NCBI GenBank assembly: GCA_902774285.1
Contig: CACYHO010000001.1
Location: 400,958-464,957 of the forward strand
Direction of reading: 5' to 3'
Length of the DNA stretch: 64,000 nucleotides
DNA from: an uncultured Pseudomonadota bacterium
GTDB taxonomy: Bacteria > Pseudomonadota > Alphaproteobacteria > Rs-D84
A program made the position numbers and the translations under genes. Positions 49,701 through 62,792 of the stretch are shown here, piece by piece (the stretch's first letter is position 1; each line of letters starts with the position of its first letter). The notes beneath the pieces were generated by a model. The model saw only the letters and a program-made list of their open reading frames with translations. It was not told where the DNA came from and made no database searches.

Positions 49701-49763
49701 ATTCAATATTTTTGCCTGCACTTTTTGTGCGGGCTTTTTTTAACAAAAAAACAGGTCTTGAAC

Positions 49764-50174
49764 ATGCAGTTAAATTTAATAACAAATAACGATGATACAC
49801 AAATCGTATCATATAAATTGGCACGTATAATATTTGCAGAAACAGATGCTTTGTCTTTGCAAATAGTGGAAGCAATGGCTTCGATGATTAACAATATTCA
49901 TATTAAATATGATAAATCATTTGAATCTATTGCAAAAGATAATGATTTATTTGAATGTTTAAATTCAAAATCATCACGTAATAAAAATTTAAATGTTGCT
50001 GCAAATGACAGAAAATTCCAAATGTGTTTGCGTGTTGTTCAAACAATGATGCGTGGTAATTTACAAGATACTGTATTCGGTGCAACAAAATTTCATCATG
50101 CAAATATTATTCCACAATGGGCAATGTCACGTGGATATATATCGGAATGTGAAGATATTTTGTTTTATTTGTAA
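49764..50174 (+). CDS. SleB/Hydrolase_2-like cell wall hydrolase (endolysin-like)
   Basis: LARIIFAE, FECLN, GATKFHH...PQWA...ILFY. Confidence 0.75.
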   Translation: MQLNLITNNDDTQIVSYKLARIIFAETDALSLQIVEAMASMINNIHIKYDKSFESIAKDNDLFECLNSKSSRNKNLNVAANDRKFQMCLRVVQTMMRGNLQDTVFGATKFHHANIIPQWAMSRGYISECEDILFYL

Positions 50175-50188
50175 ATAAAGGATAAACG

Positions 50189-50407
50189 ATGAATAAAATA
50201 ATAAAAGGTGGATATTTACAAGACAAAAAAACTTATGTTGTATCAAGTGTCGGAATAATATCTGCCGTTGGTGCTTATTTAATCGGCGATGAAGATATTT
50301 TTACAATGATGCAAACAATATTTACATTAGGCGGTATTTATTTTCTTAAACAAGAATCTTCAACCAAAGGAAAAAACAATGGAAAACGTTCCAGAAAAAT
50401 TTCTTGA
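50189..50407 (+). CDS. Holin-like small membrane protein
   Basis: KKTY then two hydrophobic segments and a basic tail; follows the hydrolase. Confidence 0.55.
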   Translation: MNKIIKGGYLQDKKTYVVSSVGIISAVGAYLIGDEDIFTMMQTIFTLGGIYFLKQESSTKGKNNGKRSRKIS

Positions 50408-51035
50408 TGACAAAGGTGAATTAAACACATCGGCGTTAGTAAAATCATATTGTGAATTAGAAAAAAAGATGAGCAATATGATTTCTGTTCCAAATGATGA
50501 CAGTGATGAAAATGTAAAACAAAAATTTAATCATGCAATTGGTGTTCCAGAAAATGCTTCTGAATATCCAACGAACGATTTGTTCGATGACGAATCGGTT
50601 CGTAATAAATTTCATGAAATTGGTTTAACAAAAAAACAAGTTGAACAAATTTATTCTATCGCTGAAGAATTTTTACAACCAACATTAAAAAATTTATTTG
50701 AATTACAAAATCAAACAAATGCGATTAATGAATTAAAAAATTTTTTTGGTGGAACAGAAAAAATGAATGATGCATTGCGTGAAATAAAAGCATTCGGTGA
50801 AAAATATTTACCAGCATCTGCGTTTGAAGAGCTGTGTGCTACACCCCAGGGAATACAAGGCGTGTACAAAATGATGCAATCTTTTGAACCGACAGTTTTA
50901 ACAGATAAAAATGTATCAGAAAATTTAACTGATGATATGTTGCGTAACATGATGCGTGATCCAAAATATTGGCGTGATCAAGATCCAGAATATGTTCGTA
51001 AAATTGAAAATGGTTTTAAGAAATTATATTCATAA
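50379..51035 (+). CDS. Capsid scaffolding/assembly protein (podovirus-type)
   Basis: VPEKF...LVKSY.ELEKK...GVPE; C-terminal MRDPKYWRDQDPEYVRKIENGFKKLY. Confidence 0.78.
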   Translation: MENVPEKFLDDKGELNTSALVKSYCELEKKMSNMISVPNDDSDENVKQKFNHAIGVPENASEYPTNDLFDDESVRNKFHEIGLTKKQVEQIYSIAEEFLQPTLKNLFELQNQTNAINELKNFFGGTEKMNDALREIKAFGEKYLPASAFEELCATPQGIQGVYKMMQSFEPTVLTDKNVSENLTDDMLRNMMRDPKYWRDQDPEYVRKIENGFKKLYS

Positions 51036-51132
51036 ATAATTTTTATTCTTTACTATTTGTTTTGATTCATATAAAATATGATTAAGAACAAAATAAATTT
51101 TGTTCTATCCAAAACATAATAAGGAGAGAATC

Positions 51133-51426
51133 ATGTTCTTTAGTTCAAAGAAAAAATGTGCATGTGCAAAAGCTGCTGCTAAACCAGCTGCAAAAAAAGC
51201 ACCTGCAAAAAAAGTTGCTGCTAAAAAACCAGCTGCAAAAAAACCAGTTGCTAAAAAACCTGTAGCAAAAAAACCAGTTGCAAAAAAAGTAGTTGCAAAA
51301 AAAGCTCCTGCTAAAAAACCAGCTGCAAAAAAAGTAGTTGCTAAAAAAGCTCCTGCTAAAAAACCAGCTGCAAAAAAAGCACCTGCTAAAAAACCAGCTG
51401 CAAAAAAAGTAGTTAAGAAAAAATAA
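51133..51426 (+). CDS. Histone H1-like Lys/Ala/Pro-rich DNA-binding protein
   Basis: Repeats of [15 protein letters not shown]; RBS AAGGAG. Confidence 0.8.
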
Positions 51427-51669
51427 GAATTTGCGCAAATATTTTGCGTGATTTTTTATATGTCATCCCCAAAGCGTTTGTTTTGGGGATTTTTTTGATA
51501 AATTTTTCAGTTAGATATTATATGTCTAACTGAATTTTTTATTGGATAATCCATTTTTGGACCCTTTTTTGTGTTTTGTATTTATGGCGCGATATTTTTC
51601 GCACAACCATTAATCAAAATTTTTCAAATGCGCGTAAGCGTTTTTTAATTTAAACAAAAAGGATTTCTT

Positions 51670-52491
51670 ATGTCTATGTCTGTAGATCAAGTGTTTATAA
51701 AACAATTTGAAGCAGATGTTCATTTGGCTTATCAGCAAATGGGCACAAAATTACGCTCTACAATTCGTAGTAAATCTGGGGTTGTGGGGACTTCTACTAC
51801 TTTCCAAAAAGTTGGCAAAGGTATTGCCAGCACAAAATCACGTCATGGGATTGTTCCTGTGATGAATTTGAATCACACACCTGTTGAATGCACATTGCAA
51901 GATTATTATGCAGGCGATTGGGTTGATGCATTGGATGAATTGAAAACTAATGTTGATGAACGTCGTGTAGTCGCTTCTGCTGGTGCTTATGCTTTGGGTC
52001 GCAAAACAGATGAATTAATCATCAATGCTATGAATTCTGCAACACAATATGTTGGTGATTATTCAACAGGTTTAACAAAAGCTATGATCATGGCTGCTTT
52101 GGAAAAATTGAACGCAAACGATGTTCCAGATGATGGTCGCAGATTTGCTGTTGTTGGTGTTCACCAATGGAACGAATTGTTGAAATTAGACGAATTCGTT
52201 TCTTCTGATTATGTTGGCGGTTCTACACCTTTGGTAGATGGTTGCGAATCACGTAAATGGTTGGGTGTTAATTGGATTTTATGCAATGCATTGCCATTAA
52301 GCAGCGACGATCGTGATTGCTTTATGTATCACGCATCCAGTATCGGTCATGCTTGTGGTCAAGAAGTTAAAACAGATATCACATGGCATGGTGAACGTGC
52401 CGCTCACTTTATCAGCAACAGCATGTCTCAAGGCGCTGTTTTGATTGATAACGATGGTATCGTTCGTTTGAAATGTGATGATGACGCATAA
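51670..52491 (+). CDS. Major capsid protein (BPP-1-like podoviral family)
   Basis: SVDQVFIKQFEADVHLAYQQMGTKLR, DWVDALDELK, ALGRKTDELII, WLGVNW. Confidence 0.88.
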   Translation: MSMSVDQVFIKQFEADVHLAYQQMGTKLRSTIRSKSGVVGTSTTFQKVGKGIASTKSRHGIVPVMNLNHTPVECTLQDYYAGDWVDALDELKTNVDERRVVASAGAYALGRKTDELIINAMNSATQYVGDYSTGLTKAMIMAALEKLNANDVPDDGRRFAVVGVHQWNELLKLDEFVSSDYVGGSTPLVDGCESRKWLGVNWILCNALPLSSDDRDCFMYHASSIGHACGQEVKTDITWHGERAAHFISNSMSQGAVLIDNDGIVRLKCDDDA

Positions 52492-52516
52492 TAACTTGTA
52501 ACCAAAAGGAAAAAAG

Positions 52517-52747
52517 ATGGCTTTTCAAAATAAAAACTTGTCCGTGATTGCATACGCAAACGGTTTTACTTTGTGGCATTATAAAGAAAACGCAACATTG
52601 GCAACAATAACTGCATCTGGATATTTTTCCAGTTTGAAAAATCTTATGAACACAGGCGATATCATTTTAATCAATGGTTCAAATGGTTCTTCGATTAAAG
52701 TTATTACAGTTGCAGAAGGTGTTGTAACTGTTGGTGCGTTATCATAA
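52517..52747 (+). CDS. Small capsid-associated (decoration-like) protein
   Basis: LWHY...ATITASGYF...GDIILI; position directly after the capsid gene. Confidence 0.6.
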   Translation: MAFQNKNLSVIAYANGFTLWHYKENATLATITASGYFSSLKNLMNTGDIILINGSNGSSIKVITVAEGVVTVGALS

Positions 52748-52810
52748 TAATTTCTTCGTTGAATAGTGTTGGGGGATATTTATCCCCCATTTTTTATTTA
52801 ATAAATAGGT

Positions 52811-53335
52811 GTGAATATGTTTACAAAAATAGATTTATGTTCAATGGCATTATTAAAATTGGGCGAAAAACCAATTCAATCGTGGCGTGAAGACAGTGCC
52901 AGTGCACAATTGGCCAGAACGTTGTTTGATCCAACGGTTGATACTTTGTTATCAATGTTTCCATGGCGTTTTGCCACAAAAACTTTAGTTTTAAATAAAA
53001 CACAAGATGGCGATTTTGTAATTCCAAGTGAAGTATTAAGAATTTTAAAATGTAATGGTCAAATTATAGGCAACAGAATCAAAGCCGCAGAAAATACAAT
53101 AACAATATTGGCTGTTGTTAAAACAGAACCAGAAATGTTCCCTGGGTATTTTGCAACATTGGTCGCCACGAAATTGGCAATGGAATTCTGTATTCCGCTT
53201 ATTGGCGATGCAAATGTATTTAAAATGATGACCGCATTATACGAATCAGAATATCAATCTGCAAAATTCATAGACAGTACAACATCAAAACAATCAAATA
53301 TTGGAAGTTTTTCTTTGATAGATTCCAGATTTTAA
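52811..53335 (+). CDS. Tail adaptor / tubular protein A-like
   Basis: IDLCSMALLKLGE..I...LL..PWRFA...LA.E. Confidence 0.75.
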   Translation: MNMFTKIDLCSMALLKLGEKPIQSWREDSASAQLARTLFDPTVDTLLSMFPWRFATKTLVLNKTQDGDFVIPSEVLRILKCNGQIIGNRIKAAENTITILAVVKTEPEMFPGYFATLVATKLAMEFCIPLIGDANVFKMMTALYESEYQSAKFIDSTTSKQSNIGSFSLIDSRF

Positions 53336-53353
53336 ATAACAAGGAGTTTTTAT

Positions 53354-55066
53354 ATGGGGAATTTTCTTAAAACACAAAATTCTTTTTCAAACGGAGAAGT
53401 TGCGCCTGAATTTTATGCGTTAAATAATGTTCATGGACTTTCTGTGCTTGAAAATATGGATGTTTTGCAATCTGGTGGATTAAAACGTAGACCCGGGTTG
53501 AAACAAATAGCACAAATACCACAAGATGCTATATTGGTGCCTTTTAAAATAAGCGAAACAGAAAAATATTTGTTGGTGATGTATGGCCAAACCATAGATG
53601 TATATGAAAATGATATAAAAATAACAACGATTACAACTTCATGGACCGATATCAATCTAAAGCAAATGCAATATGCACAAAGATTTAATACTATATTTTT
53701 TGTATTTAATAATCTTAAACCACAGATGCTTACAAAAGATGCCGATGGTTTTCATATAAAACAATTCAGTTTTTATGTTAACCAAAATATGAGTATAAAT
53801 ATTCCATTTATGCGTTTTGATGATATGGATGGGGTGTCGATTACTATTTCAAACAGTGATATTGATAATAATCATGCAGTTTTTACTACTAATAAAGATT
53901 TATGGTCGGCAGATTGGGTTGGTGAACGTTTGTTGGTTAATGACATTCAATGGATTGTACAATCTGTTCAAAGTGCCCGTTCTGTAACAGTTTATACAAA
54001 CAGCGGTTTTTCATTTCCTGGGACGCCGCTGTATGATTGGTATGTTGCAGCATTCAGTGCTAAACGCGGTTGGCCAATGTCTGTGTCTTTTCATCAGAAC
54101 AGACTTGTTTTTGGTGGAACAAAGTCGGCACCGAATAACTTATGGATGTCAAAAGTTGGCGATTATACTAATTTTGATACAGGTACTGGGTTAGATGATG
54201 ATGCAATTTTCTTGACTTTATTATCTTCACAACATCACCAAATATCTACGATAGTCAGCAGTGATAATTTACAAATATTAACTTCTGTTGGTGAATGGGC
54301 AATTTCAAATGCACCGTTAACGCCATCAAATGTTAATGTTAAACAACACACGTCTGTGGGCAGTACAACAAGTACATATTTGCCACCACAACAGATAGAA
54401 GGTGCAACTGTTTTTATATCTCAATCAGGCAAAGATGTACGAGAATTAGATTTAGATGATTTAAGCCAACATTATAATGCAAACGATTTGTGTTTGTTTT
54501 CTAAACACTTGATGAACAATCCATCAAGTATAGCTTTCAATCAATCAACACATCAATTGTTTGTTGTGATGGAAGACGGCTATATGGCTGTTTTGAATAA
54601 ACATCCAAACACAGAAATTAATGCGTGGGGAAAATATATAACAGATGGACACTTTAAATATGTGTCTGTGTTTGATAATAACACATACGTTGTTGTTAAA
54701 CGCCAAGATAAATTTTATTTAGAAAAATTTGATTCAGATTGCCTGGCAGATTGTCAAACATACAATTTTACATACAGAATATCTGCTTTCCCGATGATTG
54801 TTAATAATCATAACCCAAAGAAAATTCGGGCACGTAAAGTATCTGTGCGTGTAATAGATACAAAAACATTATTCATCAATAGTTACCGTGTTGAAATTCC
54901 AAATTATGTTTATGAAACAGGTAGTTCTGGATATAACGGTGATTTAACCATTAATTTATTAGGTGGTCAAATTAACACGATAGAACCTTTGTGGACGTTG
55001 TCCAGCAGTGAACAATTAAATGCAACGATATTATCTGTCACTGTGGATGGATGGTATTCAATTTAA
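53354..55066 (+). CDS. Tail nozzle / tubular protein B-like
   Basis: QNSFSNGEVAP, GGLKRRPG, GWP.SVSFHQNRLVFGG, LWMSKVGDY.NF. Confidence 0.85.
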   Translation: MGNFLKTQNSFSNGEVAPEFYALNNVHGLSVLENMDVLQSGGLKRRPGLKQIAQIPQDAILVPFKISETEKYLLVMYGQTIDVYENDIKITTITTSWTDINLKQMQYAQRFNTIFFVFNNLKPQMLTKDADGFHIKQFSFYVNQNMSINIPFMRFDDMDGVSITISNSDIDNNHAVFTTNKDLWSADWVGERLLVNDIQWIVQSVQSARSVTVYTNSGFSFPGTPLYDWYVAAFSAKRGWPMSVSFHQNRLVFGGTKSAPNNLWMSKVGDYTNFDTGTGLDDDAIFLTLLSSQHHQISTIVSSDNLQILTSVGEWAISNAPLTPSNVNVKQHTSVGSTTSTYLPPQQIEGATVFISQSGKDVRELDLDDLSQHYNANDLCLFSKHLMNNPSSIAFNQSTHQLFVVMEDGYMAVLNKHPNTEINAWGKYITDGHFKYVSVFDNNTYVVVKRQDKFYLEKFDSDCLADCQTYNFTYRISAFPMIVNNHNPKKIRARKVSVRVIDTKTLFINSYRVEIPNYVYETGSSGYNGDLTINLLGGQINTIEPLWTLSSSEQLNATILSVTVDGWYSI

Positions 55067-55081
55067 CAAGGAGATTAAAAT

Positions 55082-55429
55082 ATGGGACAATTAGTATCAG
55101 ATGTAACAAAAGTTTTAGATTATAAAGAATCTAAAAAATCAGCAGAAAATCAAAGACAACAAATACTTGCGCAAATGGCGGCAGACGAAGCTACAAAAAC
55201 AAATTTGATAAAAAAAGCATTGTCTGCGCAACGCGCAAAATATGGTGCGTCGGGTAATACTGGTTCTGGTTTGTCAGAAAGTGCAGTGTTAAAACGTTTG
55301 CGCGAAGAAACTGCAAAACCGTACGACGAAAAATATCAAGAAAATATAGAAAAAATTAAAAAGTTAAAAGTAAAAAAACCAAACATACTTAAAACATGGT
55401 TGTCTAACATAGATAAAATAGCAGGATAG
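55082..55429 (+). CDS. Internal virion protein-like
   Basis: QRAKYGASG..GSG..AVL motif typical of small podoviral core proteins; synteny. Confidence 0.55.
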   Translation: MGQLVSDVTKVLDYKESKKSAENQRQQILAQMAADEATKTNLIKKALSAQRAKYGASGNTGSGLSESAVLKRLREETAKPYDEKYQENIEKIKKLKVKKPNILKTWLSNIDKIAG

Positions 55430-55438
55430 GGGGCGTAA

Positions 55439-55975
55439 ATGTATAAAATCTCTTATGTTGGGGACGGAGAAACAACAGAATTCACGTTTTCTTTTCCGTT
55501 CTTTCAAGAATCTGATATCAAGGTAAGCATTGATAATGAAATATTAAATAATACCCAATATGATGTTAATCCAAATGATGATTTTACCGGTGGTATAGTT
55601 GTGTTCGCAAATGCCCCGACAAGTAATCAAAACATAGATATATTTCGTCAGGTAGATTTATCACGTGTGATTGATTATCAACCAACATCAAAAATAGATC
55701 CAGAAGATTTAAATTCTGACTTTAATTTTTTATTGGCTGCATTGCAGGATATAAGAACAATAGATATCGATTTAGCACAATGGTCAAATGTTCATGATAA
55801 TCTTTTGAATAAAATAGATTATGTCATAGACACCATAGAAGATAAAATGTCAGGCGGCGCGATATTGGGTTTATATTATAATCTGGTATCTGTATTGGAA
55901 GATTTAATAAATGATTATGGTTCTGTTGATGAAGATGCAGACGATGAAAACAATGACGATTACGGAAGCATTTAG
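55439..55975 (+). CDS. Tail-fibre N-terminal adaptor domain only (T7 gp17 N-like)
   Basis: YVGDGETTEFTFSFPFF...IKV...R; EDLNSDF; no distal fibre domain. Confidence 0.7.
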   Translation: MYKISYVGDGETTEFTFSFPFFQESDIKVSIDNEILNNTQYDVNPNDDFTGGIVVFANAPTSNQNIDIFRQVDLSRVIDYQPTSKIDPEDLNSDFNFLLAALQDIRTIDIDLAQWSNVHDNLLNKIDYVIDTIEDKMSGGAILGLYYNLVSVLEDLINDYGSVDEDADDENNDDYGSI

Positions 55976-56552
55976 TTTTTTAGACGCTTGGAATAAAATT
56001 TTAGGCTTTAAAACACCAGAGCATCATAAACAGATAATAAGTTTTCTGGTTGATGTGTTTAACAATGAACCGCGTCGCGGTCTGTTAAACGCTTTCCGAC
56101 ATTCTGGTAAATCGACAGTTGTGGGTGTTTTTGCAGCTTGTGTTTTATATCATAAGCCAGAAAGCAGAATTTTGATATTATCTGCAGAATCAGGGTTGGC
56201 ATCACGTATGGTTGCCCATATAAAAAATATACTTGAAAATCATCCGTGGTGTGAAGGTGTTGTACCAGAAGTAAAAAAAGAATGGGGTTCGCATAAAATA
56301 ACAATTAACAGACCTGTTGGAATTCGCGAACCTTCTGTTATTTGTCAGGGTATTTCTGGAAATATAACTGGTATGCGTGCAGATTTGATAATATGTGATG
56401 ACGTCGAAGTTCCGAATACGTGTAATACGGCACAAAAAAGGGTGAACCTGCGTGAAAGATTGCGCGAACTTGATTTTATACTATCGCCAAAGGGAACAAT
56501 GATTTTCATTGGAACCCCACATACACAAGACACAATATATAAAGTCGAATAA
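55953..56552 (+). CDS. Large terminase, N-terminal ATPase half
   Basis: AFRHSGKST (Walker A), ITGMRADLIICDDVE (Walker B), IGTPHT, then stop; start 55944 or 55953. Confidence 0.85.
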   Translation: MTITEAFSFLDAWNKILGFKTPEHHKQIISFLVDVFNNEPRRGLLNAFRHSGKSTVVGVFAACVLYHKPESRILILSAESGLASRMVAHIKNILENHPWCEGVVPEVKKEWGSHKITINRPVGIREPSVICQGISGNITGMRADLIICDDVEVPNTCNTAQKRVNLRERLRELDFILSPKGTMIFIGTPHTQDTIYKVE

Positions 56553-56553
56553 T

Positions 56554-57195
56554 TTATGAAAGAGATGACATAAATGTGCGAAGCTTTGCAAGCATTTCAT
56601 TACCCGCATCACCAAACATAGGAAGATATGTTTCGAACTCTGGCATGTCTGCTTGAATTTGTGCGCGGTTACGTTCGGATAATGTTTCTGATAATAATTC
56701 TTTGGCACTGTCCCAAATGCGATAAGCTTTATCTGTTTGTGCAACAACTTTCCATTTAGAAATCATGTCTTTGTCATGTGCGATTGCAGATTTAATATCT
56801 TCAACCCAATCATTACCAAATTTCTGAATGAATGTTAATTGTCTGATAGTATTCAAACCATCAATTGTTGGCTGGAATTCTTCCAGTGCATGTTTCAATT
56901 GATTGATTTCATCTTCGGTCAACGAAATATTTGCTTTTCGGTCAGACATCAAACCACCATATGGCAACAAATCTTTGTCTATAGTATCCATAGGTGTTTT
57001 ACCACTGCGCAGATTATTTATATGTGTAACGAGTTTTTTGCCTGTTGGCATAGATTCTAATTCGGCTATAACCTGGTCATCATTAGATTCTGTGATAAAA
57101 ACTTTGTTAACAGCAGCCCATCCGCCATCAATAACGTGAGCTTGACGATAAAGGTTCAATAAACGCTGTGCGATTGTATGTGCTTGTTGTTGCAT
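56554..57195 (-). CDS. Hypothetical protein
   Basis: 213-aa ORF, RBS GGGGAG; co-oriented with the HTH gene and dnaB. Confidence 0.7.
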   Translation of the reverse strand: MQQQAHTIAQRLLNLYRQAHVIDGGWAAVNKVFITESNDDQVIAELESMPTGKKLVTHINNLRSGKTPMDTIDKDLLPYGGLMSDRKANISLTEDEINQLKHALEEFQPTIDGLNTIRQLTFIQKFGNDWVEDIKSAIAHDKDMISKWKVVAQTDKAYRIWDSAKELLSETLSERNRAQIQADMPEFETYLPMFGDAGNEMLAKLRTFMSSLS

Positions 57196-57223
57196 TTTAT
57201 CTCTCCCCAGGTTATAAAGTGCT

Positions 57224-58231
57224 TTATTGCATAACTATCATGACAACTTTATGGAATGTTTTTCCTGTTATCTTTTCTTCAGGATTTGATACATGACCAA
57301 AAGTTTTGCCATGGCTATCTTGACGTACAACCACAATTTGTGCATCAACGATATCATCAGATGATAATTTTGTAAAATCTTCGTTTATGCATACAGCCAA
57401 ATCACCAACCTTTGGTTTTGTTGTAGCGTCTACGAAAACATAAGAAGATTCTGGTATGAAACCACCCAGTCTTTTTGAATTAGGAATAACAGCATATATT
57501 CCATTGCGGCCTTCTAATGTAGTAGGTGCAACAATCATTGTTTCGTCAGATTTCTTCAATTTGATGTTTTTGCCGGCAGGCTTACCGAAAACAGGAACCA
57601 ATTTTTTGCGTGCATTATCATACAATTGTGCACCGTAAAGACCACCATGAATATCCAAACCTGATATTGGGTTGACAGGTTCCAAAACAGATTTAACGCG
57701 TTCTTTGACTTTGTTAATTTGTTTTGTTAATTCACCAGCCTTATACAGTTTTGCGATTTCATCAAACAATTCAGATGCACTGTATCCAAAAGCATGAGCC
57801 AAAGTATCGATTTCGTTTTCATAAACTTCGCGTTGACCAACTTCGATTTTATGATAAACAGACAATGTCATTTTTGCATCTTTGGCGGCCTGAGCAATAG
57901 TTTTTTCTTTGCGTTGACGGATTTTGCGAAGTCCGGAACCGAATATTTTCAATCCGCTGTCTTCGTTGTCATTTAAACGGCGCTTGATTTCATTTTGCCA
58001 ATTTTGCGCGACAGAATCAGATTCGTGAATAAATATATCTGACAATTTGCAGCCCAATATTGTGCATACATTTAACAACTGTTTTTGATTAAGACGACGA
58101 ACGCCTTTTTCAATCTTTGATACAGCAGAAAGTGATAAATTAGCACGACGTGCCAATTCTGTCATTTTCATACCTTTGCTTGCACGAATATTGCGAATAT
58201 TATTTGGAAAAATGATTTCTTCTTGTGCCAT
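57224..58231 (-). CDS. Repressor-like protein with two XRE HTH domains and an S24-like C-terminal domain
   Basis: NNIRNIR...LARRANLSLSAVSKIEKG; LRKIR...AKMTLSVYHKIEVG; VPVFG...YVFVD..KPKVGD; RBS AAGGAG; TTGCCA-N17-TAATAT promoter. Confidence 0.75.
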   Translation of the reverse strand: MAQEEIIFPNNIRNIRASKGMKMTELARRANLSLSAVSKIEKGVRRLNQKQLLNVCTILGCKLSDIFIHESDSVAQNWQNEIKRRLNDNEDSGLKIFGSGLRKIRQRKEKTIAQAAKDAKMTLSVYHKIEVGQREVYENEIDTLAHAFGYSASELFDEIAKLYKAGELTKQINKVKERVKSVLEPVNPISGLDIHGGLYGAQLYDNARKKLVPVFGKPAGKNIKLKKSDETMIVAPTTLEGRNGIYAVIPNSKRLGGFIPESSYVFVDATTKPKVGDLAVCINEDFTKLSSDDIVDAQIVVVRQDSHGKTFGHVSNPEEKITGKTFHKVVMIVMQ

Positions 58232-58297
58232 GACCGGACTCCTTGATATCATGTTGACAAAATATTAGTCAATTTTTAAGGGCTTGGCAAGTAAAAA

Positions 58298-59845
58298 TTA
58301 AATCATATCATCAGGAATATCGTTAATGTCAGCAACTGTTTGGACATTTGTATCTGATACGGTCGCATACTGTTGATCATTATTGGCATCTGCGAAAGGT
58401 TGAACACCGTATTGATTAAGGTTATCAAACAAGTAATATTCACCAGTGAAGCTCAGGTGAACTGTTTCTGGTTTACCGTGACGGTTCTTTGCTATGATGA
58501 TGTCTGCTTTGTTGCGAACACTGTCTAAACGTTTTTGCCAATTCTGCATAGAGGTTTCTGATGCGGTGCCAGATAATTTTTTATCAGGGGAACGACCTTC
58601 AAGATAGTATTCTTCACGATATGTGAACATAACAATATCGGCATCTTGTTCGATAGATCCGGATTCACGCAAATCTGACAACACAGGTCTTTTATCATCA
58701 CGTTGTTCGACGCTTCGTGATAATTGGGACAGTGCGATAACAGGTACATCTAATTCTTTGGCCAATATCTTTAATCCACGGGTGATTTCTGATAATTCTT
58801 GCACGCGGTTATCATTGTGTTTACCACCAGGAGAAGTCATCAACTGTAAATAGTCGATAACAATCAAAGCCAAACCGCCGAATTGACGTGCGATACGACG
58901 TGCACGTGTTTTTATCGCGGCCACAGACATATTTGCAGTATCGTCAATAACAACAGGTACTTTCGAAAGGGCATCGCTGTATTGCGACATCTTTGTAAAA
59001 TCTTCATCTGTTAAATTACCATCACGCATGTGTGATGCAGGTATTTTTGATTGTGAAGATAATACACGTGCCGCCAATTGAGAATATGACATTTCAAGAC
59101 TGAAGAAAGCAACTGCGCCTTTGTATTGATTGTTTGCGCGGCCGTTTAAAATAGCATTTGCAGCATTGAAAGCGATATTCATTGCCAATGTTGTTTTACC
59201 CATACCTGGACGTCCAGCAATAATAATCAAATCAGAATGGTGCAGGCCGCTGATTGATTTATCTAAATCGTCTAACCCTGTGGTAAGACCAGACAATTTA
59301 CCATCGGCTTTGTATGCAACAGCTGCTTCTTGTAAAGCGCTTTGTAATGCATCTGCCAAAGATACTATATTGCGTTCGCTTTGACCCGTAGAAGCCAAAT
59401 TAAACAGTTTCTGTTCGGCAGATTCTATTTGATTATTTACGGTTTTATCCAAATCTTCGGTGTATGCATCATCGATAATGCTTTGACCCAATTGAATCAA
59501 ATCACGACGGCGCGCATTATCAAAAACAATACGTCCATAATGTTCAACATTGACAACAGTAGATCCCGCTGATGCTAATTTGGATAAATATTCAACACCG
59601 CCGACACTTTCCAATGTGCCTTGTTGTTCAAGGTATGTTTTTGCAGTGATTATATCAAAAGGGACCCCGACAGCAAACTGACGCATAGCCAAACGATAAA
59701 TTTCTTGGTGTGCTGGATGCGAAAAATGTTCTGGTAACAAAAAGTCTGATACAGATTCCAATGCGCGGTTGTTCATCAATACCGCGGCCAGCACAGCCTG
59801 TTCGGCTTCTAAATTAGTAGGTAAAGTTTTCGGAGTAAAGTCCAT
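58298..59845 (-). CDS. dnaB: Replicative DNA helicase
   Basis: EAEQAVL, AGRPGMGKT, IDYLQL, LSQLSR, DLRESGSIEQDAD; start 59845 or 59851. Confidence 0.96.
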   Translation of the reverse strand: MDFTPKTLPTNLEAEQAVLAAVLMNNRALESVSDFLLPEHFSHPAHQEIYRLAMRQFAVGVPFDIITAKTYLEQQGTLESVGGVEYLSKLASAGSTVVNVEHYGRIVFDNARRRDLIQLGQSIIDDAYTEDLDKTVNNQIESAEQKLFNLASTGQSERNIVSLADALQSALQEAAVAYKADGKLSGLTTGLDDLDKSISGLHHSDLIIIAGRPGMGKTTLAMNIAFNAANAILNGRANNQYKGAVAFFSLEMSYSQLAARVLSSQSKIPASHMRDGNLTDEDFTKMSQYSDALSKVPVVIDDTANMSVAAIKTRARRIARQFGGLALIVIDYLQLMTSPGGKHNDNRVQELSEITRGLKILAKELDVPVIALSQLSRSVEQRDDKRPVLSDLRESGSIEQDADIVMFTYREEYYLEGRSPDKKLSGTASETSMQNWQKRLDSVRNKADIIIAKNRHGKPETVHLSFTGEYYLFDNLNQYGVQPFADANNDQQYATVSDTNVQTVADINDIPDDMI

Positions 59846-60692
59846 GTCCATTAGATTAAACGAAAATTTTCAGAATTCAATACCTTTTTTACGTGGGTAT
59901 AAACAATTAAAAATACCTATCTTGGACAGTGCTGGAAATCCGGCCTGGCCAGAGATGTTCCCAATAGAAAAAGTACATGAATTAGAAGACATTGTGGGGC
60001 CGCGACATTTTTCTGCACAAATGATGCTGGAATATGTCGCACAAGAGCGCATTCATTTGGATCCGGGGGCATTGCATTTTTATGCAAGCGATTTTGATGT
60101 TTATAATAATCGAATCGGTGATAATAACATTACAGGTGTTGCTTTTTATTGGGATCCTTCAACTGGACAAAGAAATTGTGATGGCAGTGTTTGTGCACTG
60201 ATATATCGTGATGATAAAAACAGAAATGTTTTTGTTCATGATGTTTTGTATATGGAAGTCAGCGATGACGATATGCATCCGTTAAGTAATCAATGTGATT
60301 GCGTTCTGGATTTTATGCAAAAACACCATTTAACAAGAATCGGTATAGAAATAAATGGTATTGGAAATGCGTTACCCGAAATTATGCGTAATATCGCACA
60401 AAATCGTAATGTTCAAATAAACATTGCCCAAATTTCAAATCATACAAAAAAAGAAACACGAATTGTGAATGCTTTGGAACCACTGTTGTCCACAGGTCAT
60501 CTTTATATGCACGAAAAGATAAAACAAACAATGTTGTTATCAGAAATGTTGGCTTGGACGCCCGCGGGTTCCAAAGAACACGATGATGGACTGGACGCTG
60601 TTGCAGGCGCGATATCTATGATGCCTTTGCCGGTAAGAGTATACGGAAAATCATCACAACAAATTCAAGCAAATACAGAATTTAAAGTATAA
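59844..60692 (+). CDS. Large terminase, C-terminal nuclease half
   Basis: PFLRGY..L.IPILD..G.PAWPE.F linker; YWDPS, IEING, KKETRI, HDDGLDA (RNase H fold). Confidence 0.85.
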   Translation: MSIRLNENFQNSIPFLRGYKQLKIPILDSAGNPAWPEMFPIEKVHELEDIVGPRHFSAQMMLEYVAQERIHLDPGALHFYASDFDVYNNRIGDNNITGVAFYWDPSTGQRNCDGSVCALIYRDDKNRNVFVHDVLYMEVSDDDMHPLSNQCDCVLDFMQKHHLTRIGIEINGIGNALPEIMRNIAQNRNVQINIAQISNHTKKETRIVNALEPLLSTGHLYMHEKIKQTMLLSEMLAWTPAGSKEHDDGLDAVAGAISMMPLPVRVYGKSSQQIQANTEFKV

Positions 60693-60713
60693 CCAAACAA
60701 AAGGAATATCAAA

Positions 60714-61937
60714 ATGCAAAAAAATCTTATGCAATTATATAAACGCGCGTTAGACGAAAGAGAAATATGGTTGCCTCGTTGGAAGAACGCGATGCGTTAT
60801 ACAATACCAACAGACGATACAGAATCTGCTACTTTGTTTGATGCAACTGCTGCAGATGCAGTGGATAATTTAGCTGCATCAATGTATTCGTTATTAACAC
60901 CACCAGAATCTTTGTGGATAAACCTGGTTCGTGAAAGCGATTTGTCGCCTGATGCAGAAATTGCAACAGCGATGTTACGTGCTCATTTAAACGATTCTAA
61001 TTTTTATACAACTGTGCATCAATGTTATATTGATTTAGTTGTATTGGGAACTGCGTGTTTGTTCATGGCAGAAAATCCAATCGGTGCAGATTCCGCATTT
61101 TCTTTCACTGCGATACCAATGAAAGATATTGCTATATTGCCAGGTATGGTTTTTCACACTACATCATTGCCAGTATCTGATTTGATGGAAAAATATCCAG
61201 ACTTTGTTTTTCCAGCAAATATGCGTGATACTATAAAAACAAATCCTCAAACACCGATAAGATTGGTTCAGTCTTTAATCGGTAAAGATTTTACAGCGTG
61301 GGTTGATGTTGGCGGAGATATTGAAAATAACATTGTTGCACGTGGAACATTTGAAACCAATCCATATATCATATTCCGTTGGTCTTTGGTAAGTGGTGAA
61401 TTATACGGCCGTGGTCCAGTGTTGCGTGCGCTGCCCGATATTAAAACAGCAAACAAAGTTGTTGAATTAGTGTTGAAAAATGCAACTATCGCCGTAAGCG
61501 GTATATGGCAGGCTGATGATGATGGTGTTATCAATTTATCCAACATAAATTTGACGCCAGGTGCGATTATTCCAAAGGCTGTGGGCAGTTCTGGTTTAAC
61601 CCCGTTGCAAAGTGGTTCTGATTTTGATGTGTCTCAAATTGTTTTGCGTGATTTGCGCGATCGTATTCGTCACACATTGTTGGCAGACAGACTTGGGTTG
61701 CTTTCTGATAAAGAAATGACGGCAACTGAAATATTGGCGCGGAACAGTGATATGGTGCGCATACTTGGTGCAACATATGGTCGTTTACTACATGAATTTA
61801 TCAGGCCGTTATGTGAACGCGGATTGCAAATATTATCGCGTCGTGGATTGATAGATAAAATATCTTTGCACAGTGATGCAGAATTAAAATATATTGCACC
61901 CATTGCGCAAATGGCACGTGAAGAAATGTCTATATAA
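60714..61937 (+). CDS. Portal / head-tail connector protein (podoviral type, compact)
   Basis: FDATA..A.DNLA, DLVVLGTA, RW...GE.YGRGP..ALPDIKT.N, MTATEI. Confidence 0.9.
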   Translation: MQKNLMQLYKRALDEREIWLPRWKNAMRYTIPTDDTESATLFDATAADAVDNLAASMYSLLTPPESLWINLVRESDLSPDAEIATAMLRAHLNDSNFYTTVHQCYIDLVVLGTACLFMAENPIGADSAFSFTAIPMKDIAILPGMVFHTTSLPVSDLMEKYPDFVFPANMRDTIKTNPQTPIRLVQSLIGKDFTAWVDVGGDIENNIVARGTFETNPYIIFRWSLVSGELYGRGPVLRALPDIKTANKVVELVLKNATIAVSGIWQADDDGVINLSNINLTPGAIIPKAVGSSGLTPLQSGSDFDVSQIVLRDLRDRIRHTLLADRLGLLSDKEMTATEILARNSDMVRILGATYGRLLHEFIRPLCERGLQILSRRGLIDKISLHSDAELKYIAPIAQMAREEMSI

Positions 61938-61949
61938 AAGGTTAATACA

Positions 61950-62150
61950 ATGAACGATATTGAAAAACACTATGCACGCATTTTTAATACACCTTCTGGC
62001 AAACAAGTTTTAAAGCATTTGCGAAATATAACGATAGAACGCAATGTTGGACAAAACATATCAGATAATGATTTGCGTTGGTGGGCAGGTCAAATTGCAT
62101 TGGTTCATCAAATAGAGAACATTGTAAAAAGAGGTAATAATCCAACATAA
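61950..62150 (+). CDS. Small conserved phage protein following the portal (Bbp19-like)
   Basis: YARIFNTPSGKQVLKHL...GQ..LV..I. Confidence 0.7.
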   Translation: MNDIEKHYARIFNTPSGKQVLKHLRNITIERNVGQNISDNDLRWWAGQIALVHQIENIVKRGNNPT

Positions 62151-62181
62151 TATAGATTGTGGTAAATTATTAATAAACATT

Positions 62182-62442
62182 ATGACAAAACAGCAAAATA
62201 TATTTACATTTTTGGATGCGTTGCGAGACAGTTGGTTTTTGATAGTTTTTATTGCTGGCTTAATTTATTGGGTTGCGCGTCAAGATTCATCTTTGGCAGA
62301 AATAGAACGACAAGATCAACGTATAACATCTTTGGAAAACAGAACAACAATACTGGAATCTGGTATTGGTCAATTACAATTAAAAATTGACGGCATAAAA
62401 GAAGATGTGACTTTGATTAAAAGTGCAGTTATAAAAAATTAA
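62182..62442 (+). CDS. Single-TM coiled-coil protein
   Basis: WFLIVFIAGLIYWV then heptads. Confidence 0.55.
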   Translation: MTKQQNIFTFLDALRDSWFLIVFIAGLIYWVARQDSSLAEIERQDQRITSLENRTTILESGIGQLQLKIDGIKEDVTLIKSAVIKN

Positions 62443-62792
62443 ATGGCGTTTTTTGCCCAATATATTTTATGACCACAAACAACTATTACATCAAAACGCG
62501 CATCCCCCATCCAATGTTTGTTTATTAAGTAAGTTTCTGCGGCACGGCGCAAACGTGCAGATTGGTTTGATGTTATGGCTTCCCATGCCGCAGAAATATT
62601 TTTTCGTGCCTTAACTTCTACAAAAACAATAGTATTTTTATGTTGTGCAATAATATCAATTTCTGCGCGATTTGTATTTTTTCCAGTTATATATCTGCTT
62701 TTTAAAATACGGTACCCATGAAATCGCAAATACATACGTGCCAGAAATTCAGAATATAATCCAGTTGTATAAGATGTTTTATTAAAAAGCAT
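62439..62792 (-). CDS. yraN: YraN family (PD-D/ExK) protein
   Basis: GLYSE..A..YL, EIDIIA, VFVEVKAR, RFDVI. Confidence 0.9.
   Translation of the reverse strand: MLFNKTSYTTGLYSEFLARMYLRFHGYRILKSRYITGKNTNRAEIDIIAQHKNTIVFVEVKARKNISAAWEAITSNQSARLRRAAETYLINKHWMGDARFDVIVVCGHKIYWAKNAI

Follow-up and report, generated by a model that had tools for sequence, protein, structure and literature searches.

The window examined here is a stretch of 64,000 nucleotides (assembly GCA_902774285.1, contig CACYHO010000001.1, positions 400,958 to 464,957 of the forward strand) from an uncultured alphaproteobacterium, whose genome (G000) is a 77% complete metagenome-assembled genome (MAG) of 855 kb in 4 contigs. 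It contains a large terminase (TerL) that is encoded in two pieces. Large terminases of tailed phages and herpesviruses are regarded as universally consisting of one chain with two domains (PMC13595956, PMC7824862). In the window, however, the two domains are not joined on a single polypeptide by a lid and linker; they are divided between two open reading frames (ORFs) with their own stop and start, designated TerL-N and TerL-C, and the gap between them is 3.3 kb here and 0.17-15.6 kb among relatives. The features of this region are:

55911-56552, plus strand: TerL-N, the ASCE (additional strand, catalytic glutamate) ATPase core of a T7-type large terminase
56554-57195, minus strand: hyp213, a 213-aa protein without assigned function
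57224-58252, minus strand: a regulator of 342 aa with two HTH_3 (Cro/C1-type helix-turn-helix) domains and an unassigned C-terminal domain
58298-59851, minus strand: dnaB, the replicative helicase (DnaB_C, E 9e-102)
59844-59851, both strands: the divergent overlapping starts of TerL-C (plus) and dnaB (minus), 8 nt
59844-60692, plus strand: TerL-C, 282 aa, with a strand region, lid-type helices and an RNase H-like nuclease

TerL-N overlaps the 3′ end of the tail-fibre gene and has six in-frame ATG codons (55911, 55917, 55929, 55935, 55944 and 55953), giving products of 199-213 aa. It carries the P-loop arginine and Walker A (FRHSGKS), Walker B with the catalytic glutamate (CDDVE) and motif III (GTPH), as does the ASCE ATPase of a complete TerL, and TGMRAD is a candidate for the segment bearing the trans-arginine. 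FRxxGKS (including the Walker A lysine and the P-loop arginine), the TGxRAD arginine, DDxE and GTPH are invariant in all 93 TerL-N orthologues compared. The Pfam match, to Terminase_6N, is weak, and this model covers only the first half of the ATPase domain in all relatives, so that Pfam does not locate the domain boundary. Residues 34-211 of the TerL structures 8dgc_E and 4bij_A align to TerL-N (E 5e-23 for 8dgc_E), and T7 gp19 aligns to TerL-N up to residue 211, with the conserved part of TerL-C starting from T7 R217. The C-terminal end reads GTPHTQDTIYKVE and is followed by a stop at 56552; the stop codon of the convergent hyp213 gene (56554-56556) lies one base past it, as the earlier note on this DNA had observed. 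In other families, TerL-N ends with GTPHTxDTIY and a further 1-5 residues, and most copies stop 1-9 residues past the conserved IY.

TerL-C starts at the ATG at 59844, with GGAG upstream at 8-nt spacing, and its N-terminal sequence is MSIRLNENFQNSIPFLRGYKQLKIPILDSAGNPAWPEMF. Residues ~10-35 form the strand region found past motif III in an unsplit TerL, lid-type helices occupy residues 41-60, and the nuclease extends from residue ~78, with the motifs WDPS, E-x-NGIG and HDDGLD. Pfam assigns it the T7 RNase H-like terminase domain and Terminase_6C (PF22530, E 9e-9; PF17289), and the conserved acidic residues of a C-terminal TerL nuclease are in place, WDP[SA] and DD[GC]xD being invariant in 84 of 84 TerL-C orthologues. 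The first ~40 residues include a conserved stretch, FLxG[YF]..LKIP...WPE.F, and in other families 5-25 variable residues precede PFLxG[YF]..LKIP. The dnaB start codon (59851-59849) and the TerL-C start overlap back to back, and the ribosome-binding site (RBS) and promoter of each gene must therefore lie inside the coding sequence of the other; the 'GVKSM' reading of 59844-59851 is kept across the genus. Both halves are uninterrupted and retain SGKS, CDDVE, GTPH, WDPS and HDDGLD, with three minus-strand genes between them, in agreement with the earlier description.

The split is not peculiar to the window. A TerL-N ORF of ~200-250 aa occurs in 277 of 301 genomes and in 27 of the 29 genera of the order, whose families and genera are designated here f1-f6 and by g-numbers, with f1 as the Enterousia family (the records of relatives are named Candidatus Enterousia or 'MAG: Alphaproteobacteria bacterium'). 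A two-ORF TerL with an identical break point was found in five of the six families sampled (f1-f5), and the two halves occur together in nearly all genomes examined. In the first 24 genomes of the same genus, both halves are present on one strand ~3.3-3.6 kb apart, except in G018, where they lie on different contigs. Among 80 named Enterousia loci, all 70 that are long enough have the order TerL-N (plus), hyp213, double-HTH gene and dnaB (all minus), TerL-C (plus) and portal (plus), with 3250-3877 bp between the halves; the named loci come from the rumen or gut of ruminants, horse, chicken, mouse and termite.

Internal stops are absent from all 80 TerL-N and all 71 TerL-C copies in Enterousia. 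The ratio of nonsynonymous to synonymous substitution rates (dN/dS; Nei-Gojobori, five closest Enterousia species) is 0.03-0.11 for TerL-N and 0.13-0.19 for TerL-C, at dS values of 0.8-1.8. These values are far below 1, and the relaxed selection that the earlier note had named as a possible refutation is not seen; its suggestion of a maintained gene fission is borne out in all these respects, and relatives share the split. Together with the invariant motifs, the selection data indicate that both enzymatic centres are maintained.

The earlier note had also placed the split exactly at the ATPase/nuclease boundary, and in this respect the structural models do not support it. In solved terminases, the ATPase domain comprises ASCE and lid subdomains, followed by a short linker to the nuclease, and the lid, which closes off the ATP site, is in contact with the P-loop arginine (PMC5727402). 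In the AlphaFold model of P0133, an unsplit relative (predicted local distance difference test score, pLDDT, 91.5), the motif III strand (178-187) is followed by a loop (188-215) that contains the fission site, a strand (216-220) that equates to 'LKIP' of TerL-C, helices at 237-255, and the nuclease from ~274. When TerL-C is modelled by itself (pLDDT 91.4), residues 1-40 lack regular structure, two helices occupy 41-60, and an RNase H-like core extends from ~78. Foldseek searches agree with these assignments: isolated nuclease-domain structures align over only 190-230 columns of the 282-residue TerL-C and the full PhiV-1 TerL over 279 columns (best match 8dgc_E, E 6e-13), while isolated P74-26 ATPase-domain structures (250-258 residues) span 274-299 columns of the unsplit model, well past residue 200. 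The models thus place the cut in a variable loop ~10 residues past motif III and ~60-80 residues upstream of the ATPase/nuclease boundary. On this modelling, the cut runs through the ATPase domain, with the ASCE core on one side and the lid on the other, and the two halves do not correspond to a whole motor and a whole nuclease.

An exhaustive HMMER search with TerL-C returned C-only relatives of ~270-300 aa and full-length relatives of ~450-515 aa, with residue ~8 of TerL-C corresponding to residue ~200 of the latter. Residues 1-200 of P0133 match TerL-N and residues 202-496 match TerL-C. The joined halves are colinear with the unsplit relatives (451-514 aa), including P0133, and with T7 gp19, and nothing has been lost; the alignment of concatenated halves to full-length homologues that the earlier note had proposed as a check therefore comes out in its favor. 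Among the unsplit relatives, the segment from GTPHxxxxIY to FLxGF varies from ~3 to 30 residues, and the cut thus falls in a tolerant loop.

The unsplit TerLs are also chromosomal and occur in similar domesticated clusters of other Alphaproteobacteria. The P0133 locus lies on a 113-kb contig between PBP1/prfB/YhdP and mnmG, in a compact cluster of ~10.6 kb with the order small ORFs, TerL, hydrolase, portal, Bbp19, scaffold, capsid, tube A and nozzle. In P0178, an unsplit TerL of 464 aa follows capsid, tube A, tube B, an unnamed gene and fibre, with host genes thereafter. This is the permuted gene order of Enterousia with an unsplit TerL; domestication and permutation therefore came first, and the fission afterwards. 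A maximum-likelihood tree unites all 14 split TerLs (N and C joined end to end) and 33 unsplit TerLs in one clade with 98% support. The tree constrained to a single split clade has a log-likelihood 24.6 units above that of the unconstrained tree (approximately unbiased test, p-AU 0.78). A single fission is compatible with these data and is the simplest reading of them, although it is not proven.

The dnaB block, which the earlier note took to be what splits the gene, cannot have this role, since in f2, f4, f5 and one genus of f1 the halves are only 0.17-0.5 kb apart. In f2, f4 and f5, they are separated by nothing but an AT-rich non-coding spacer of 174-379 nt in which each of the three frames contains stops; at these adjacent-type loci, TerL-C is preceded by a Shine-Dalgarno sequence and begins with an ATG of its own. 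Within f1, the slot is empty in g17 (~0.4-0.5 kb); in g15 it contains only dnaB, which is oriented like the halves; Enterousia and several other f1 genera have the inverted hyp213-HTH-dnaB block, enlarged by extra DNA to 4.3 kb in g23, 9.2 kb in g11 and 15.6 kb in g12. The order in f3 is TerL-N, a tRNA region, ftsZ, portal and TerL-C, with ftsZ present as a single copy in the genome. Because the halves are adjacent or are separated by ftsZ and the portal gene in these other lineages, the fission is older than the arrival of dnaB, and only afterwards did the gap between the halves turn into a rearrangement-prone slot.

The occupants of the slot in the window include at least one host gene. The copy number of dnaB is one in G000 and in five of five relatives, including a 100%-complete genome and a single-contig one (G075), and dnaB is therefore an essential host gene and not phage or mobile cargo. 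The double-HTH gene is always accompanied by hyp213, and in f3 this pair is found downstream of the particle cluster (vide infra) and not between the TerL halves; the double-HTH protein is a candidate regulator of the cluster.

The explanation that we consider likely is an ancient, fixed fission of terL that has given rise to an obligate two-chain terminase, which would serve a podovirus-derived particle system resembling a gene transfer agent (GTA). The terL gene of an old chromosomal gene set of T7/podovirus origin would have been cut once, in or before the ancestor of the order and after domestication. A stop and an internal start in the tolerant loop could have produced the cut, which would have been fixed in small, drift-prone populations and would have become irreversible once other genes entered the gap. 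The slot subsequently took in the single dnaB of the host in f1, the inverted regulator pair as well in Enterousia, and ftsZ and the portal gene in f3. TerL-N and TerL-C would be translated separately and would reassemble non-covalently, so that the ATPase domain is made whole; TerL-C would bring its lid over the nucleotide site of TerL-N, and the contact between P-loop arginine and lid would become an inter-chain one. Heterodimers of this kind would assemble into the usual ring on the portal and act, with the capsid proteins, as packaging motor and nuclease. The particle is most likely of the GTA type. The fission itself, its age and spread and its maintenance by selection are established by the data given above, as is the host nature of dnaB; the reassembly of the chains, terminase activity, particle production and a GTA role are the proposed part.

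Several observations weigh against this explanation. The key interface, in which a strand of TerL-C would complete the ASCE sheet of TerL-N, is inferred from secondary structure, fold coverage and ASCE topology. A quick unconstrained tree search placed the split TerLs in three groups. The small terminase was not recognised, the small ORFs near the cluster having no family match. Finally, the 99% complete genome G029 of family f6 has a TerL-N with an open frame of 211 aa (C64:35287-35859), and TerL-C was not detected anywhere in it. In f6, TerL-C has either been lost or diverged strongly, and TerL-N may at times persist alone.

The f6 genome also bears on the alternative that fares best among the rival explanations, in which the halves work independently, TerL-N as a packaging ATPase resembling phi29 gp16 or in another role and TerL-C as a nuclease by itself or as a partner of the portal. 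The halves have separate translation starts, with a non-coding spacer between them; in several lineages their transcriptional contexts differ, TerL-C following ftsZ and the portal gene in f3 and dnaB in g15; and selection is of different strength on the two (dN/dS ~0.05 for N and ~0.15 for C). However, TerL-N lacks the lid, which closes the ATP site in solved TerLs (PMC5727402), and the first ~40 residues of TerL-C are conserved yet unstructured in the isolated chain, with the strand appearing only in the unsplit context. As both halves also co-occur in nearly all genomes examined, independent function is unlikely.

The remaining alternatives are less probable still. A decaying prophage, with terL broken by an insertion and its pieces surviving as pseudogene fragments, would fit the small, reduced host genome, a cluster with neither integrase nor replication genes and with an unrecognised small terminase, and the interleaving of host genes with the cluster. 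It is nevertheless very improbable, given that the ORFs are intact across the order with all catalytic motifs, that dN/dS is far below 1, and that the capsid protein is 65-74% identical between families.

Excision at the DNA level (as in the sigK skin element or in phage regulatory switches) could in principle restore terL in particle-producing cells; the insert is discrete (3.25-3.9 kb in the genus), and lysing producer cells could bear the loss of dnaB. However, hyp213, the HTH protein and DnaB are the sole products of the block, which has no recombinase gene, and a search for att-like, direct or inverted repeats at both junctions yielded only one 9-mer, which is at chance level. Neither the recombinase nor the flanking att repeats of an excisable element are therefore present. 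TerL-N is closed by its own stop codon, and TerL-C opens with a Shine-Dalgarno sequence and an ATG of its own. Other families have a split terL with no insert at all and with stops in every frame of the spacer, and in f3 a portal gene lies between the halves. Restoration by excision has accordingly very little to recommend it.

Phage terL genes can carry introns and inteins, and the halves might be joined by a group I or II intron, trans-splicing, ribosomal bypass or a split intein. Rfam intron families gave no match in the window or in five adjacent-type loci, where only tRNAs were found, and neither self-splicing RNA nor intein blocks were found at the junction. Antisense essential genes occupy the gap. 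As TerL-N in most copies stops 1-9 residues past IY and TerL-C starts 5-25 poorly conserved residues before FLxG, intein halves could not be accommodated, and the length of the spacers is far beyond what bypass could span. A split terminase has been mentioned for Staphylococcus phages (PMC13729910), but any of these joining mechanisms seems highly improbable in the present case. An assembly artefact, in which a contig wrongly joins terL pieces to the dnaB region, can be set aside even for a MAG that is 77% complete, since 70 independent assemblies, drawn from many studies and hosts, show the same order and orientation, as does the single-contig genome G075; misassembly, a concern of the earlier note, is ruled out by this synteny and not by reads.

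With the two-chain terminase as the preferred explanation, the use to which the split is put can be considered. Separate control of motor and nuclease through differential expression, which the earlier note proposed as a way, for example, of limiting damage to host DNA by the nuclease, is possible. As the original reason for the fission it is opposed by the adjacent-type loci, in which the halves are co-oriented neighbors, and by the position of the cut, which frees no complete ATPase. As a later use it is favored by the placement of TerL-C and portal behind dnaB (g15) or ftsZ (f3), or with the TerL-C start interlocked with that of dnaB. TerL-N, for its part, is translationally linked to the fibre gene, and at the adjacent-type loci each half has its own RBS, with a non-coding spacer between them. 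According to a review, the isolated TerL nuclease domain of several phages is inactive without the ATPase domain (PMC13595956), and an unpaired TerL-C would thus be harmless.

It is conceivable, if doubtful, that the slot is not passive. The arrangements found in it (TerL-N, dnaB and TerL-C on the same strand in g15; TerL-N, ftsZ, portal and TerL-C on the same strand in f3; back-to-back start codons in Enterousia) might tie expression of TerL-C and the portal to cell-cycle operons and that of the ATPase core to the structural genes, and the enzyme would then be active only when both expression programmes coincide. Alternatively, the essential genes might serve as anchors that guard particle genes against deletion in a shrinking genome.

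The remainder of the cluster supports a podovirus origin. Its other recognised features, in the window, are:

49725-50174, plus strand: cell-wall hydrolase
50379-51035, plus strand: homologue of the T7-type scaffold protein
51100-51426, plus strand: Lys/Ala-rich protein of 108 aa, between the scaffold and capsid genes
51670-52491, plus strand: major capsid protein
52811-53335, plus strand: tail tube A
53354-55066, plus strand: tail tube B/nozzle
55082-55429, plus strand: small protein in the slot of the podovirus internal-virion protein, without family match
55439-55975, plus strand: T7-type tail-fibre N-terminal domain
60714-61937, plus strand: portal protein (Head-tail_con, E 1e-80), starting 21 nt past TerL-C
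61950-62150, plus strand: Bbp19-like small phage protein

These phage-like genes (49725-62150) are fixed in the chromosome without replication or integration genes. They are found across the order among host genes, in an arrangement that differs by family, and are inherited vertically under purifying selection across the host clade (277 of 301 genomes; dN/dS 0.03-0.19). The cluster is thus probably a GTA-like particle system of podovirus origin, and one that has not previously been described. It shares with the GTAs of the literature (RcGTA/CcGTA/BaGTA of Alphaproteobacteria and FpGTA) a phage-derived set for head, tail, packaging and lysis that lacks replication and integration genes, as well as vertical inheritance, purifying selection and dispersal among host genes, with two homologues 124 kb away. 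However, it has no sequence relationship to the RcGTA head-tail cluster, and no split TerL has been found in GTAs in the literature examined. That short-tailed GTA-like particles exist is clear from FpGTA of Faecalibacterium (PMC12946183), the only podovirus-like GTA in the literature searched.

Comparison with T7-type terminases (T7 gp19; PhiV-1 TerL, PDB 8DGC) shows the same order of motifs in both domains and similar podovirus-type neighbors (tail tubes A and B, T7-type fibre and portal). The Enterousia TerL differs in that it consists of two polypeptides cut past motif III, is ~90 residues shorter overall than gp19, and is chromosomally fixed with host genes between its halves. The fold matches include the Phi-28 gp11 motor. 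The packaging ATPase of phi29, gp16, is, like TerL-N, a chain without a nuclease domain. It is a complete ATPase and works with packaging RNA (pRNA) and a protein-primed genome, whereas TerL-N has no lid and a matching nuclease chain is kept beside the portal gene.

A parallel in gene layout is the herpesvirus UL15 gene, in which a terminase coding sequence is likewise broken by kilobases containing antisense genes. The gene for pUL15 has two exons, joined between Walker A and Walker B, and an intron with opposite-strand genes, and is spliced to one mRNA and one protein; the Enterousia gap has no splicing signal and leaves two proteins. Intron- or intein-interrupted phage terL genes also have a reading frame that is interrupted in the genome, but it is repaired by splicing, whereas the Enterousia loci have no intron or intein features and their spacer content is unrelated between lineages. 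A literature search returned no paper dealing with the particle genes of Enterousia or with a TerL that naturally consists of two chains, and split phage terminases were mentioned only incidentally.

A two-chain TerL of this kind would offer a natural system for examining how the lid transmits ATP hydrolysis from the ASCE core to the nuclease, as ATPase-nuclease coupling would have to cross a non-covalent interface. Its hosts are abundant uncultured Alphaproteobacteria of gut and rumen with tiny genomes, and the locus illustrates how deeply particle genes can be interleaved with essential host genes (dnaB and ftsZ). It also matters for annotation, since such loci are given wrong labels by gene callers and by virus-detection tools. 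IMG/VR contains dozens of 'viral contigs' (L125-L203), many of ~10-10.5 kb, that are Enterousia-type chromosome fragments with the cluster, and the TerL-N sequences of these fragments are 67-91% identical to that of the window. None of the best 80 IMG/VR matches is a free phage with a split TerL; all are Enterousia-type chromosome fragments. Virus-prediction pipelines are thus scoring a domesticated cluster as virus.

Some further observations concern individual members of the cluster. Two adjacent ORFs of 132 and 128 aa (G000 C1:332713-333466, minus strand), located outside the window at ~124 kb upstream of the cluster, are homologues of the two genes that precede the unsplit TerL in locus L122 and have no Pfam or PHROG match; they are candidates for the small terminase or for a regulator of a multi-locus particle system. 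The Lys/Ala-rich protein at 51100-51426 matches the histone H1-like HC2 family (PF07382, E 9e-15), which may be a low-complexity effect or may indicate a DNA-condensing or scaffold-related particle component. A promoter and terminator scan of 55000-62600 returned 32 sigma-70-like sites, compared to 30.9 expected.

With regard to ftsZ, a search with an f3 FtsZ query gave no match at E<=1e-10 in G000, which may reflect a gap in this 77% complete genome, and one copy in each of the 8 other genomes searched (seven of f3, one of f5). In both f3 and f5, ftsZ and the portal gene adjoin on the same strand (L032 8139-11393; L027 about 38-2512; G055:C20 5690-10400); they are 76 nt apart in G040, and in G055 ftsZ starts 58 nt past the TerL-N stop. 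From this gene order, the particle genes appear to be embedded in a cell-division operon. In f5 and f2, type IV pilin-like genes with a prepilin-type N-terminus are found right after TerL-C and before the portal gene (L027 4300-4770, minus strand; L028 7150-8076, plus strand; L030 3248-3712, minus strand). Finally, the portal protein has 407 aa in Enterousia, compared to 498-511 aa in f2 and f3 and 501 aa in L122, the locus with the unsplit TerL (genes compared: window 60714-61937, L028 8313-9848 and L032 9897-11393). The Enterousia portal is therefore ~90-100 residues shorter, with the C-terminal end among the missing part.

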